The translations under genes were made by a program, and so were the position numbers. The notes beneath the pieces were generated by a model that did no database searches, was not told the origin of the DNA, and saw only the letters and a list, made by a program, of their open reading frames with translations. Below are positions 5,192 through 31,213 of a DNA stretch of 64,000 bases, piece after piece. Positions within the stretch are counted from its first letter, which is position 1, and the number at the start of each line of letters is the position of its first letter. The DNA comes from an uncultured Nitrososphaerota archaeon. GTDB taxonomy: Archaea; Thermoproteota; Nitrososphaeria; Conexivisphaerales; DTJL01. The stretch spans positions 160,001 through 224,000 of the forward strand of contig CAWJIE010000003.1 in assembly GCA_963842885.1 (NCBI GenBank), in the 5' to 3' direction.

Positions 5192-5749
5192 CTAGTACAC
5201 CATCAGCCCTTCGTTTTCAAGAAGCGTATGGAGCTTGCTGACGGCTTCGTAGACCTCCTCCTCCTTCTTGGCGCCCGTACACACCAACTTCCCGCTGGCG
5301 AAGACCAGGATGACCGTCTTCGGCTCGAGCATCCTGTGTATCAGGCCGGGGAACTGCTCGGGCTCGTACAAGCTCCGAGTCAGCTTCAGGGCGGCCTCCT
5401 CCAGCTTGACCCTCCCTCCTAGGCTGACCGACGCGACTATGTTCTGAATCTCCATCTCCGGCTCGTTCTGTATCTTGATTCCCGACTTCCTCAGGTTCTG
5501 CACCACCGTCTGGACCGCCTTGAAAGCCTGTTCTTCGCTCTTCGCACCGGTGCACACCATCTTCCCGGTCCTGAAGATCAGCGTGCAGGTCTTGGGCGCC
5601 TTCAGGCGGAAGGCCAACCCTGGGAACACCTGCGGGTTGTACTCCACGTCGGGAAAGAGCCTAGTAATCTCGCTCAGGTCTATGGGTTGGTTGACCCCAC
5701 CCGAGGCTACCACGTTCTCGATAGAAATGAGCGGGGTGGTCTTCGGCAT
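5192..5749 (-). CDS. tbp: TATA-box binding protein (TBP-1), 185 aa
   Basis: IENVVAS, FPGL, GKMVCTGAKS, QNIVAS, YEPEQFPGL; ATG at 5749. Confidence 0.96.
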   Translation of the reverse strand: MPKTTPLISIENVVASGGVNQPIDLSEITRLFPDVEYNPQVFPGLAFRLKAPKTCTLIFRTGKMVCTGAKSEEQAFKAVQTVVQNLRKSGIKIQNEPEMEIQNIVASVSLGGRVKLEEAALKLTRSLYEPEQFPGLIHRMLEPKTVILVFASGKLVCTGAKKEEEVYEAVSKLHTLLENEGLMVY

Positions 5750-6320: not shown

Positions 6321-7055
6321 TCACTCCTTCACGATTACGGCTATGTACAGAGAGTTTCCTGAATCCAAGTATTTCTCCACCTTCCACCCAGTCCCCGCCA
6401 GCATCCTCTCCATTTCTGCCTTCGAGACGAAAAGGTAATCGAACCAAGGAGTAGCGTATTTCAGGTATCGCACGCGAATGCGAATCTGGCCCGCCCTCCT
6501 TTCCCTTTCCAAATTCTGCTTATGATACGACAGATGGGACGGATCAGATTTCCTGTACGGGTCTATGACTTCGGCTATTATTCTGGCCTCGGCGGTGGTC
6601 ATGGCGTGGAACCTCCTTAGCAACCAGCGCGCTCGCTTGAAGTTCCCAAAGAGCCCGAAGTTGTTGCCCAGCATTATTATGGTGTCGAACCTGCCCAGCT
6701 TCGAGGAAAGCCTCGTAATGGGAATGACCTTGACGTTCCTCACCCCTCTTATTTCGCAGACCTTGACCGCCAGCGGAGATGCGTCGGTGCCAAGGACTTG
6801 GAGCCCCTTTCTTTGAAGGTAGAGGGAATGGCGGCCTGCTCCACACCCGACATCCAGGACTCTCCCCCTCACGAAGCGCATGGCCTTCCGTTCTATCTCT
6901 GGCCAGTCCTTGTACTCGGAGAAGTATACCCTGGCTGCGTTGGTGACGTCGAAATAGCCGTCGTTCCTCTCAATGATTTCGAAACTTCCTTTGGACTTCA
7001 GGTAGTCGTAGAGGATGTGTCCAAAGGCGTCCTGCTGGTCCTTGATCAAGCCCAT
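6321..7055 (-). CDS. Class I SAM-dependent methyltransferase
   Basis: VLDVGCGAGRH, GTDAS, FDTIIMLGNNFG. Confidence 0.9.
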   Translation of the reverse strand: MGLIKDQQDAFGHILYDYLKSKGSFEIIERNDGYFDVTNAARVYFSEYKDWPEIERKAMRFVRGRVLDVGCGAGRHSLYLQRKGLQVLGTDASPLAVKVCEIRGVRNVKVIPITRLSSKLGRFDTIIMLGNNFGLFGNFKRARWLLRRFHAMTTAEARIIAEVIDPYRKSDPSHLSYHKQNLERERRAGQIRIRVRYLKYATPWFDYLFVSKAEMERMLAGTGWKVEKYLDSGNSLYIAVIVKE

Positions 7056-8643: not shown

Positions 8644-9190
8644 TTCCTTGTGTGCGCGCTTGGTCGTATAGCTTCCTCACTTTCTCTTCTTCTGACGCGT
8701 AATCGGACAACTTCGAAAATGAAGTCGTAGTGCCATAATTATGTCTTTCAGATATGGGTCGCAAACTACCCGCTGAAGTAGTCCTCCTTATTGTACAGCG
8801 TACTCGCCACACTTGGGATATCTTTCGGAAACGCTGTCTATCATCGCGATTCTGAAGCATGCCGGGTCAGAGAATTGGTGGAGTCCGCTATATCTCCAGA
8901 TGGACCTGAACCACGCGGTCGATCTGCTTTCCCGCCTTAGTCATCTTGAACTCTATCAGGAATATCGCGCTGCGCACTTGGACGAACCTATGGGCGGCTA
9001 CTCGTTTCTGCCTCATAGCCACTCCCCGATATGTCACCGTAGTCCCCTCCTTGGCCTCGACTTTCGACTTTACAGCCGCGACACATAGATTGAAGAGGGT
9101 CCCTTGTGGAAAGCCCAACGTTCCGTCAAGAAATTCAAGGTAATCCTTCGATGTAAGATGGGTTTCCTTTGGTCCAGGATACCTCCCCAT
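8633..9190 (-). pseudogene. Fragmented hypothetical gene upstream of vsr
   Basis: Two short same-strand ORFs (8888-9190, 8633-8860) in lower-GC DNA; no family recognised. Confidence 0.3.
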
Positions 9191-15715: not shown

Positions 15716-15991
15716 ATGAAGACTTCCGTGAAGCGGGCTATCGTAGCGGTTGCGGTTGTCTGCGTCCTTGCCGCTCTGTTCTTGCCTCTGATACCTGACG
15801 CTGTCATAGAGCCCTGCACTTCCTTATGCGTACCCTCCACTGAAAGGGCCTATGTTTCACTGACATACTTCTTGTTTGGCAAGGGTGGCGTTGTGGTCGG
15901 CACTTCATACGTAGTCTGGTACCCCTACCCTTGGTACATTCACTGGGGCCCGACCTTGCCAGGAACATGCATCCCCACCCTATCTTCTTAG
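15716..15991 (+). CDS. Small membrane/secreted protein
   Basis: Basic plus hydrophobic N-terminus; CxxxC; SLTY motif similar to SLSY in the next gene. Confidence 0.6.
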   Translation: MKTSVKRAIVAVAVVCVLAALFLPLIPDAVIEPCTSLCVPSTERAYVSLTYFLFGKGGVVVGTSYVVWYPYPWYIHWGPTLPGTCIPTLSS

Positions 15992-16043
15992 ACATCTGTC
16001 GCTGCTGGAAAAGAAATCAATAACATTAGCCGCAGAACTTGGA

Positions 16044-28371: not shown

Positions 28372-28603
28372 GGAGTTCTCGGCTAGGGGGAAGCTCGGCA
28401 GCAGATAAGAATTGGCTGCGTTCCAGCGGTTGGAGGGATCACTAGGCATCCGTTTGGGTCCTGTTCGCCATGGACCTGCCCTGGAGTCGACCCAACGAAG
28501 CCCGAAGGAGTCCCCACCCATCGAGATAGGAGACTCCCTCGGTCTTGCCGCTCCTGGAGGGTCAGGGCCGTCCCGAGCCGGCTATTGGACAAGGCTCTAA
28601 TAT

Positions 28604-28982
28604 GTGAAGCCCGTAGCTCGCTTTGTGGTAGTCAACCTATTCACGTCGAACTACGTCCCGGGATGCAAGGTGGACAAGGTCGTTGGGCTCGTCTACGGGA
28701 TAACGGTGAGGTCGAGAGGCATCGGCGGGAACATCATGGCCGGCCTCAGGACGCTTGGCGGAGGAGAGATACACGAGTACACCGAGCTGGCGCACCAGGC
28801 AAGGCAGCAGGCACTGGACAGGCTGTCCCAGCAGGCTGAGACCCTCGGCGCCAACGCCGTGATCAGCGTGATGTTCGACTCTACCGAGATCGGTCACGAC
28901 CATGGACGAGATAATCGCCTTCGGTACAGCTGTCGTCGTTTCGCCCGTGGCAGACGGCCAGCAGTTCGTCAGGCTGAGCTAG
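28604..28982 (+). CDS. YbjQ/UPF0145 family protein (frameshift near 28895)
   Basis: GGEIHEYTEL, GANAVI, then MDEIIAFGTAV in the next frame. Confidence 0.88.
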
Positions 28983-29143
28983 GCCCGAAGGCTTCGACGA
29001 CCGGCACCACTCTCGTAGGCAGGCCTATCCGTGATGCTTCGCGAAGGAGCTCCTGGGTTGGAAGATAGGGCTGCAGTGGTGTCACTTCAGGGATCCACAA
29101 TGCAGCCTGTGTGTGCAGGCTGACGTCTGGGAAAAGCTGCAAG

Positions 29144-29195
29144 TGAACGTACCTGTGAAATAAGGCCCTTTCGCAGGTCCAAGCCCACGTCCAAG
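29144..29195 (-). repeat. Border repeat copy D, extended hairpin form
   Basis: Reverse complement of copy C (49/52). Confidence 0.9.
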
Positions 29196-29292
29196 AACGG
29201 CGGTTGAAGACATCGTTATTCTCTTCCAGCACTCATGAAAGACGCCCTATGGGCGGGCTTCCTAAAGCCTGCCTTCCGCCAGCGACGCTGTG

Positions 29293-30336
29293 TCAGGCGT
29301 CCATGGATTTGAGCTTTGTCTTGTACCTCTCCCTGTTCGTGGACTCGTACTCCTCCCTTCTCGTGAGCATGAACCAGACGATCTTCAGCATCTTGTTGGC
29401 CACGGCTACTACGGCCTTCTGGTCGCCTCTCCTCTCCTTCACCCGCTCGTAGAAGGACCTCAGCCTCGGGTCGTGCATCGATGCAGACCTCGCCGCCTCC
29501 ACCATGATCCATCGGAGCATCTTGGAGCCCTGCTTCGTTATGGCTCCGTGATACTCCACGGAGCCCGATTGGTGGAGAGAGGGCGCCAGCCCCGCCCAGG
29601 AAACGAGCTTCTTGTAGTTGGGGAACCTCTTGATGTCCCCTATCTCGGACCTTATGAGGAGGGCCGAGAAGACGTCCACCCCCGTCAGGCTCAGGAGCAG
29701 CCTCACGTCCTCGTCCTGTGACGCCCTCTCCGTGATCCTGTCGTCCACCCTGGAGATCTGCCCGTCCAGGCTCTCCAGGTGGGCCAGGTGGTTGTCCAGC
29801 ATGAGCCTGTCCATGGGAGGGAGCTCCAGCGACCTCAGCCACCCCACTCCTCCCTTCCCGAACAGGTCGGAGAAGTCATGCTTCAGGCCGTTCCTGTCGA
29901 CCATCGCGTGAACCCTGTTCTTCACCATGGTGCGCACCCTCACTATGGAGGCCCTGTGCCTGATGAGCTCCCTCATCTCCCTGACATCCTTGGGAGGGAC
30001 GTAGCTCTCGGGTATGAGATCGGCCCTCAGCAGATGCGCCAGTATCCTTGCGTCCACTTTGTCGCTCTTTATCCTCGCCCACGCTATGGCCTTGGTCTTC
30101 GAAGGGGAGGCCAACACGGTCGCGACGTGCATGGAATCGAGCCTCTCGTATATGCTTAGCCAGTAAGCCCCCGTCGACTCCATGACCACCCTGTCGTCCA
30201 TGGTGAGCGTCGCCGCTAGGGAGGATATCCCCTCATGGTCGTTGTCGAAGCCGAACTCGTCCACTACGGCCCCGTGCTCGTCCATCATGGAGACCCTGCA
30301 TCTCGTCTTGCCCACGTCTATTCCCACGTACTTCAT
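29293..30336 (-). CDS. IS110 family DEDD recombinase/transposase, 347 aa
   Basis: YVGIDVG, VMES, KSDKVDA, GLAP..HQSG, A.VAVANK; SD GGAGGTG. Confidence 0.96.
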   Translation of the reverse strand: MKYVGIDVGKTRCRVSMMDEHGAVVDEFGFDNDHEGISSLAATLTMDDRVVMESTGAYWLSIYERLDSMHVATVLASPSKTKAIAWARIKSDKVDARILAHLLRADLIPESYVPPKDVREMRELIRHRASIVRVRTMVKNRVHAMVDRNGLKHDFSDLFGKGGVGWLRSLELPPMDRLMLDNHLAHLESLDGQISRVDDRITERASQDEDVRLLLSLTGVDVFSALLIRSEIGDIKRFPNYKKLVSWAGLAPSLHQSGSVEYHGAITKQGSKMLRWIMVEAARSASMHDPRLRSFYERVKERRGDQKAVVAVANKMLKIVWFMLTRREEYESTNRERYKTKLKSMDA

Positions 30337-30344
30337 CTTTTCAC

Positions 30345-30490
30345 CTCCTTCGTACGCAGCTGGCATCGGGCTGCATTCACTCATGCGGGCGCGAAGCCCA
30401 CTTCCTTAGCAGCTCAGGATTCGCCCAGTCAGCAACACGGTCGCCAGGACCATGCTGGAAATAGGGCTTGCCAGCCCATACGGTATCAGG
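30345..30490 (-). ncRNA. Putative IS110 bridge/seek RNA
   Basis: Several hairpins; segments matching target halves (30453-30460, 30430-30437) and donor halves (30378-30385, 30347-30350). Confidence 0.65.
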
Positions 30491-30586
30491 GGGCGTCTTT
30501 CATAAGGTCAGCAATAGATGCCCGGATGCCTGTTCGGGATGGTAGAAATAAGAGGAGGTCTACAGGTTCTACAGACTGGGTTCAGG

Positions 30587-31213
30587 ATGGTGAAGAACAG
30601 GACGCTCGTTATTGGCTTATGTGTGCTCGTAGCGGCGTCTGCCTTGGCTTTTGGACTGCTAAGTCAGGAGTATCATCTAGTTGAGAATGCCTCGACACCG
30701 ATGGTCGTTCATTCTCCCGTACACGACGGTCTTGAGCTCACGGCTACGATTGAGCGAGAGGGACAGAACGTCAGCGTCATCGCCGAGGTTAACAATACGC
30801 TATCAACATACCTGCAAGTGAATTCAACTTCCATCGATAATCCTGCCTACGGACCCTGCCAGCAGGGTTTTGCCACGGGGGTAAGAGTCTACATGGGACA
30901 TTATTCGCTCAGCAATCTATCACAAGCTAAGGAACTCTTGCTCTATGACCCATCGTCGCAATACCGCTGCCCGGCATTCTTCACATTTCAGTATACCTTT
31001 TCACCAAATAGCGCAATGGCAACGGTACAAGCAACTCTAGGTGGCTATCAACAGAATGGATCTCGGCTTGTCAGTGAAACGTCGGTTGTCTCGGGTTATT
31101 GGGTCGGCTCTGGGCAGAGTTACATATTCCAGAGATTCCCAGCTGGAGAATATTCGGTTCTCGTCTTCGACGCGTGGGGAGACGAAGCAGTCGGATACTT
31201 CCAAGTCGCCTAG
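30587..31213 (+). CDS. Secreted/membrane-anchored hypothetical protein
   Basis: Signal-like N-terminus; two Cys; lower GC. Confidence 0.7.
   Translation: MVKNRTLVIGLCVLVAASALAFGLLSQEYHLVENASTPMVVHSPVHDGLELTATIEREGQNVSVIAEVNNTLSTYLQVNSTSIDNPAYGPCQQGFATGVRVYMGHYSLSNLSQAKELLLYDPSSQYRCPAFFTFQYTFSPNSAMATVQATLGGYQQNGSRLVSETSVVSGYWVGSGQSYIFQRFPAGEYSVLVFDAWGDEAVGYFQVA

Follow-up and report, generated by a model that had tools for sequence, protein, structure and literature searches.

The stretch of DNA analysed here, hereafter the window, spans 64,000 nucleotides (nt) of a contig from an uncultured Nitrososphaerota archaeon. Our subject is an insertion sequence (IS) of the IS110 family which, both copies of its TG core included, occupies 29230..30510 on the minus strand, the strand on which all features below are read unless otherwise indicated. 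Its recombinase gene (29293..30336) codes for a protein of 347 amino acids (aa), in which Pfam, NCBIfam and phmmer recognise a DEDD RuvC-like domain and a Tnp domain with a catalytic Ser. We placed the true start codon at the ATG 30336-30334 and the stop is at 29293, which gives the gene and the protein the extent just mentioned; a Shine-Dalgarno sequence, GGAGGTGA, lies at 30348-41. The non-coding ends of the element measure 174 nt on the left, upstream of the gene, and 62 nt on the right. They carry subterminal inverted repeats of 13 bp, ATGAAAGACGCCC on the left (30491..30503) and GGGCGTCTTTCAT on the right (29235..29247), which are conserved and whose two arms co-vary in homologues: 59 distinct arm pairs are identical at 11.2 of 13 positions on average, versus 9.76 between different elements. 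Immediately outside the element stand the two halves of its target, CTATTGC on the left (30511..30517) and CTGGA on the right (29225..29229), both belonging to a host repeat that we named M1. Finally, the left end contains a candidate bispecific guide RNA (bridge or seek RNA), whose structured core lies at 30358..30476.

The recombinase is readily assigned to its family. It matches the Pfam domains PF01548 (DEDD_Tnp_IS110, 1.9e-27) and PF02371 (Transposase_20, 3.1e-24) and scores 271.9 bits, for a cut-off of 140, against the NCBIfam model NF033542, “IS110 family RNA-guided transposase”. In phmmer, the solved IS621 recombinase is matched in two pieces (E 3.9e-13), and the alignment sets the segments gIDvgk, mEStg, kSDkvDar and hqSGs against the catalytic D, E, D, D and S of IS621; the residues D7, E53, D92, D95 and S257 are moreover invariant across 31 homologues, so that a preliminary description of the locus was right to regard the DEDD and Ser motifs as intact. 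With tblastn, ISEc11, IS5075 and IS4321 were aligned over 94-97% of the recombinase at 24.5-24.9% identity, the likeness to IS110 and IS1111 elements being judged from such pairwise tblastn and phmmer matches. The motif GL-P----SG and the protein length were considered as markers to tell IS1111 from IS110 elements and then dropped, as the IS621 alignment shows the same motif. Relatives of the recombinase are numerous (2879 proteins at E <= 1e-20); the closest come from records labelled Bathyarchaeota/Bathyarchaeia, Nitrososphaerota or Thaumarchaeota, and bacterial-labelled ones appear only at identities of 57% or less. The next gene downstream, on the plus strand, encodes a ribosomal protein uS2 of the eukaryote/archaeal type (222.2 bits, cut-off 211.5); this uS2 type and the labels of the closest recombinase relatives both indicate an archaeal host.

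Defining the ends of the element relied on its other copies and on an empty form of the same locus. The genome holds three copies (100, 95 and 93% identity), and when they are aligned with their flanks, the similarity starts at tCTATTGC-TG-ACCTT and stops after TCATGAG-TG-CTGGA. In the window, the left junction, thus, reads CTATTGC (30517-30511), TG (30510-30509) and ACCTT (30508-30504), and the right junction TCATGAG (29238-29232), TG (29231-29230) and CTGGA (29229-25). All three copies are inserted in the same 14-nt site, CTATTGC-TG-CTGGA, of which the left half is identical at all three and the right half is delimited by the same alignment and by 14-mer counts. The 2.03-Mb genome contains 9 exact matches to the predicted empty site, CTATTGCTGCTGGA, and 24 when up to one mismatch is allowed; at C5:163.2 kb, a left-flank paralogue reads without interruption through an intact target site. 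We also placed on 28800-30900 the contigs of four peat-metagenome runs from one study; two of these contigs (2319 and 919 nt), coming from 2 of the runs, connect 29229 straight to 30509, skipping 1279 bases. At their joint, two letters fit either side and a single TG remains, which means that the element proper consists of 1279 bp plus one TG core and that its insertion adds no target duplication beyond this core. The peat runs possibly include the source sample of the genome itself, the empty form being a separate assembled molecule. The ends, the TG core and the target proposed in the preliminary description are, thus, borne out by the three-copy alignment; the other insertions use the same target (3/3), not unrelated ones, and the empty locus has the predicted sequence.

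One may then ask whether the element is a decayed relic that is no longer mobile, in which the guides described below are fossil matches. In copy B (C3:1414-2701; loci L002 and L039), a 4-bp AAAG insertion splits the recombinase frame at about residue 90, the guide-RNA region being intact, and of the approximately 20 matching sites of the genome only 3 hold a copy, two observations that a relic would accommodate. However, the frame of 347 aa is open in copies A and C and retains every catalytic residue, the copies are 93-95% identical, and the presence of the same locus in filled and empty forms in the metagenomes points to recent movement or loss. We, therefore, consider decay unlikely, even if it is the least improbable of the alternatives discussed here.

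The preliminary description had read, in the 5′ non-coding end, two target guides, a left and a right donor guide and two stems. All the strings it quoted are found where it placed them, including TTCCAGCA (30460-53), TGTTGCTG (30437-30) and CATGAGTG (30385-78), and its general reading of an archaeal IS110 element with a bispecific guide RNA in this end is upheld by covariation, domain matches and the fold. Indeed, RNAalifold applied to 42 left ends gives a consensus of 119 nt (30358..30476) folded as a three-way junction of five helices, with 97.8% of cells paired and 8 pairs showing compensatory changes. Of 500 shuffled controls, none attains the observed value for four of the five measures and one does for the fifth; when partner columns are slid, pairing falls to 17-42%. 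The leader of the window copy has by itself a minimum free energy of -68.1 kcal/mol (z = -3.24). A scan of 28500-31200 against Rfam at E <= 10 returned only two chance matches on the opposite strand (snoRNA and Xist), so no curated RNA family covers this RNA.

The structure is closed by helix P1 (30476-69 with 30365-58), from which two arms emerge, each predicted to hold one internal loop. The target arm rests on helix P2 (30467-63 with 30427-23); its loop has on the 5′ side the right target guide ATTTCCAGCA (30462-53), complementary to the top strand TG-CTGGAAA, and on the 3′ side the left target guide TGTTGC-TG followed by AC (30437-28), the two sides being separated by the helix P3 hairpin (TGGTC-CTGGC-GACCG, 30452-38). 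TGTTGC-TG is in the sense of CTATTGC-TG, from which it departs by one G:T wobble, and AC corresponds to the first two bases of the element. The donor arm rests on helix P4, in which GCTGC (30413-09) pairs with GCAGC (30374-70) in 42/42 left ends. Its loop has TAAGGAAG (30408-01) on the 5′ side, including TAAGG (30408-04), probably the right donor guide, then the helix P5 hairpin (30400-386), and on the 3′ side CATGAGTGAAT (30385-75), which contains the left donor guide CATGAG-TG, a same-sense match to the element's right end. The GCAGC/GCTGC stem had been drawn differently in the preliminary description, with a downstream GCTGC as partner; that pairing can form only in the window copy and its near relatives, most homologues having at this place GCCAGCC, the 3′ strand of P1, and it is, thus, not conserved. 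As for the concern that the two target guides could pair with each other, such pairing is possible, owing to the TGCTGCTG repeat in the target, but the consensus fold leaves both guides in the internal loop.

As a rough estimate, chance alone would give an exact 8-mer match in a leader of 171 nt with a probability of about 0.0025, and covariation among homologues is the stronger test. We collected 55 loci from genomes and 80 from metagenomes, and examined 96 of them (window included) that have a full-length protein with at least 55% identity. Both ends could be parsed in 75/96, the other 21 being truncated by contig ends or rearranged; these 75 loci represent 70 distinct insertions, mostly of Bathyarchaeia elements, among which 42 guide pairs and 30 left-target-guide sequences can be distinguished. 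As a control, each guide was compared with the flanks of loci having a different guide. The aligned left ends hold two hypervariable blocks. The left target block follows GCGACCG and, in the window, TGTTGC-TG is a copy of the left flank and core; over the 5 nt beside the core, the left target guide fully pairs its own left flank, by its bottom strand, in 64/70 insertions, 58 of these 64 by Watson-Crick pairs only, versus 140/4266 (3.3%) in the control. The right target block precedes TGGTC and, in the window, TTTCCAG-CA is the reverse complement of the core and right flank; over the 6 nt beside the core, full pairing with the own right flank is observed in 44/70 insertions, and pairing at 5 or more of the 6 positions in 59/70, versus 109/4732 (2.3%) for full pairing in the control. 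The best of two registers was kept for this right guide, in test and control alike, as one base is missing before TGGT in 12 of the TG elements. The largest guide class (20/70 insertions; loci L114, L126, L131, L133, L142, L151 and others) has as target (TG)n then CGCACC or similar, which suggests that in other Bathyarchaeia a microsatellite-like or repeated sequence is a common target.

The core follows the same logic. Fifty-five insertions have a TG core and 13 an AG core, and in 68/70 the core is concordant at both junctions and in both left guides; of the two exceptions, one has a variant right end and the other a parsing shift. Facing the core, the right target guide has CA in 32/57 TG elements and CT in 10/13 AG elements, CT being absent from all the TG elements examined. 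In the left donor guide, ATGAG is invariant and the core that follows switches between TG and AG with the flanking cores and with the core of the left target guide (68/70). Both target guides and the left donor guide CATGAGTG of the preliminary description are, therefore, retained, given the covariation with the flanks and the concordance of the core, and the guide/target covariation that it had suggested checking among homologues is strong. In three unrelated insertions (loci L111, L134 and L136), the right junction reads CATGAGTG-AGTG before a flank matching the right target guide, that is, a 4-nt tandem repeat of end and core.

These internal blocks could also be read as DNA sites, either an attP-like copy of the target serving a DNA-DNA recombination or a piece of flank copied by gene conversion at insertion. 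The left block indeed resembles a copy of the left junction, since it reads in the sense of the flank and runs on into the first bases of the element itself (62/70). But the right-flank match is antisense and sits 15 nt upstream of the left-flank match, and the two matches flank a conserved hairpin inside a helix with compensatory changes, which is the arrangement of published bridge and seek RNAs in the available text of PMC11208160 and PMC11187229; the enzyme family has, moreover, been shown to be RNA-guided. DNA sites are, for these reasons, a very improbable explanation of the blocks.

The right donor guide required a revision. The preliminary description had proposed AAGG (30350-47) for this role, with the caveat that it overlaps the Shine-Dalgarno sequence, and it does lie within GGAGGTGA. 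We rejected this candidate, which is located 3′ of P1, within the ribosome-binding site and outside the conserved fold, and whose sequence does not follow the element end; the reverse complement of left-end positions 2-5 is found in this tail in 29/70 loci, and such matches come cheap with A/G-rich Shine-Dalgarno sequences. TAAGG (30408-04) tracks the end instead and is probably the right donor guide, pairing with the left-end sequence CCTTA. Its three variable positions can pair with the left end in 64, 66 and 60 of 68 loci, respectively. The fourth guide position is G in 10/14 left ends beginning with ACC and A in 50/54 of those beginning with ACT; left ends with ACTAT accompany a TATAG guide in 4/5. 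One has to keep in mind that the loci are related, which weakens this evidence.

The 2 nt that follow the left target guide are identical to the first 2 nt of the element in 62/70 insertions. They resemble the handshake bases reported for IS621 in the available text of PMC11208158, with the difference that they stand here beside the bottom-strand guide. A handshake of the IS621 type beside the left donor guide was also considered and rejected, as the next 2 nt correspond to the first 2 of the right flank in 8/70 only.

Taken together, these data make it very probable that 29230-30510 is an intact, recently mobile IS110-family element of a Bathyarchaeia-type archaeon, with its guide RNA in the left end. 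Several observations weigh against this reading or parts of it. The covariation counts come from related elements on metagenome contigs, so the events are non-independent; 26/70 right target guides are incompletely paired over 6 nt, and in the 12 TG elements shifted by one base, the base opposite the first core position is non-complementary. The left target guide of the window has a G where all three local targets have an A: this G of TGTTGCTG stands as a wobble opposite the T that pairs with the A of CTATTGC, and makes an exact match to a common unoccupied variant, CTGTTGCTG. The TAAGG guide is short (5 nt) and stops before the core, its covariation is confounded by relatedness, and mismatches occur at its three positions in 4, 2 and 8 of 68 loci. 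The recombinase gene of copy B is broken. The predicted circle-junction 14-mer (TCATGAG-TG-ACCTT) has 0 exact matches in the assembly, the 2 one-mismatch matches being unrelated, and no back-joint was seen in the four peat runs, searched as contigs only. Lastly, none of the 20 sequencing runs found is recorded as RNA.

This last point would also suit a purely cis-regulatory leader, a 5′ untranslated region ensuring, for example, translational control, with the protein alone reading the target and the flank matches arising by coincidence or as a by-product of the TGCTGCTG repeat; although the fold stops 10 nt before the Shine-Dalgarno sequence with no terminator-like T run between fold and gene, and although the two target guides are able to pair with each other, we find this hardly credible, as each of 30 left-guide sequences corresponds to the left flank of its own locus, and the right guides likewise to their right flanks (flanks of other guides match in 2-3%), the core switches between TG and AG in step at four places, and a regulatory leader would have no reason to follow DNA outside the element.

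Under the guide-RNA reading, the 174-nt left end would encode an RNA with a folded core of 119 nt, in which the internal loop of the first arm would read the target and that of the second arm the joined ends of the element, TAAGG probably pairing with the left-end CCTTA. With this RNA as its guide, the 347-aa DEDD/Ser recombinase would then exchange strands at the shared TG core, which would account for insertion without duplication in one 14-nt site. Published work on IS621, ISEc11 and ISEc21 leads us to infer that this RNA is expressed, that the recombinase binds it and that it acts by way of a circular intermediate. As for its expression, the left inverted repeat contains an invariant TTATGAAAG, which starts 27-29 nt before P1 in 41/57 loci and is, thus, a possible TATA box judging from the sequence, 27-29 nt being the usual spacing from an archaeal TATA box to the transcription start. 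If this promoter proved true, the guide could come from the integrated copy without circle formation.

The 14-nt site belongs to the repeat M1, about 45 nt long (ttGGATATCTrTTGCTGCTGGAAAAGAAatCaATAtCaTC), the two halves of which surround the element at 30511-30525 and 29200-29229. Within 5 mismatches of a 26-mer, the genome has 33 copies of M1; a copy of the repeat lies on the plus strand of the window at 15990-16015. A 21-mer search allowing up to 2 mismatches gives 23 copies here, 15 in a congeneric genome in which we found no close copy of the IS (best recombinase match 32% identical), 1 in another congener and none in 33 further genomes of the order; a reversed-pattern control gave 0. Further copies of M1 are found, e.g., at C4:137468, C3:47583 and C5:34388, and clusters at C7:3.8-27.7 kb, C3:1-24 kb and C2:14-27 kb; several sub-families can be told apart among its left flanks and among its right flanks, and these occur in mixed combinations. 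M1 was also considered as the start of a gene family, a doubtful reading: the reading frames that follow M1 are mostly 12-65 aa long, different frames being open in different copies (one of the two frame listings comprises 10 rows only). A second short repeat, M2 (GGGCTTGGACCTGCGAA, 29170-29186), is often 30-80 nt from M1, on either side; it is also present at C3:24-40, 1351-1367, 2724-2740, 5665-5681, 6712-6728 and 8696-8712, and adjoins all three copies of the IS.

The gene beside the left end (30518-31213, plus strand) has no family match, and its start is signal- or membrane-like. The likely true start codon of this neighbour being at about 30587, the insertion lies about 70 nt upstream of it and may sever its promoter. 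The region upstream of this gene is duplicated, with 83% identity, at C5:163197-163284, where the target is unoccupied.

Bridge/seek-RNA recombinases are under development as programmable DNA-writing tools, and the present clade has useful properties in this respect: it is large, as seen above, its recombinase (347 aa) is small and its RNA core (119 nt) short, and nature has already reprogrammed it, 30 left target guides and two core types being in use. As to the host, it has a dispersed, genus-specific repeat that is both marked and interrupted by the element. Its mixed layout also bears on the link between guide polarity, subterminal repeats and RNA position in the IS110/IS1111 split, as well as on how such elements are expressed from archaeal promoters. 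A preprint on IS110 and Nop5 reports 662 archaeal IS110 recombinases in several clades, its available part describing no RNAs for them (10.1101/2024.06.21.599552), and our full-text literature search found no paper combining Bathyarchaeia with an archaeal IS110 bridge RNA.

The mechanism itself is known from bacteria; what differs here is an unusually compact RNA and a mixed layout, in which the RNA is upstream, as in IS110, while the guide order and the 13-bp subterminal repeats are IS1111-like. According to the available text of PMC11208160 and PMC11208158, IS621 shares with the window element a DEDD and Ser recombinase and a guide RNA in the left end upstream of the gene; the former source also gives it two internal loops, target first and donor second, and a 2-nt core without target duplication, with a dispersed genomic repeat as target. 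Its recombinase is only distantly related to the 347-aa protein, as the phmmer E value of 3.9e-13 indicates. Compared with what PMC11208160 reports in this text, the guide order is reversed here in both loops, in all 42 aligned left ends; the subterminal repeats are of 11-13 bp instead of 2-3 bp; the core is TG or AG instead of CT; and the RNA is a 119-nt three-way junction with both arms closed by the long-range P1, whereas bridge RNAs are of about 150-250 nt.

IS1111 elements are described in the same source as having long subterminal inverted repeats and their RNA in the right end. Their seekRNAs (ISEc11, ISPa11, ISKpn4 and ISPst6), in the available text of PMC11187229, have the top-strand match 5′ of the bottom-strand match, the reverse being reported for the IS110-type ISEc21. 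The window element has the IS1111-type order, since 30462-53 precedes 30437-28 and TAAGG precedes CATGAGTG, and shares with this group the class of subterminal repeats (7-17 bp) and of transposase length (about 330-350 aa); in contrast, the RNA of IS1111 elements is downstream, in a long right end, whereas it is upstream here and the right end measures 62 nt. The same text mentions a few IS1111-type elements with an upstream non-coding region, such as ISMtsp17, the guide layout of which is not stated in that portion. ISEc21 resembles the window element by its upstream non-coding region and similar transposase size (345-385 aa class), but there the bottom-strand match comes first, 5′ of the top-strand match, and long subterminal repeats are absent, according to this same portion of PMC11187229, the window element being the opposite on both counts. 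As for the target, homing into a repeated short host sequence is likewise known for IS elements in REP sequences, for the IS1111-attC group and for IS4321/IS5075 in Tn21 ends, all cited in the available part of PMC11208160; unlike these, the repeat used by the window element is an uncharacterised sequence of about 45 nt.

We put forward, as a tentative proposal that may well prove wrong, that an undescribed, mainly archaeal lineage (Bathyarchaeia and related) represents a third layout of the IS110 family, in which an IS1111-style guide RNA has moved before the gene, with long co-varying subterminal repeats, a P1-closed three-way junction of about 119 nt that would rank among the most compact natural bridge RNAs, and possible transcription from TTATGAAAG.

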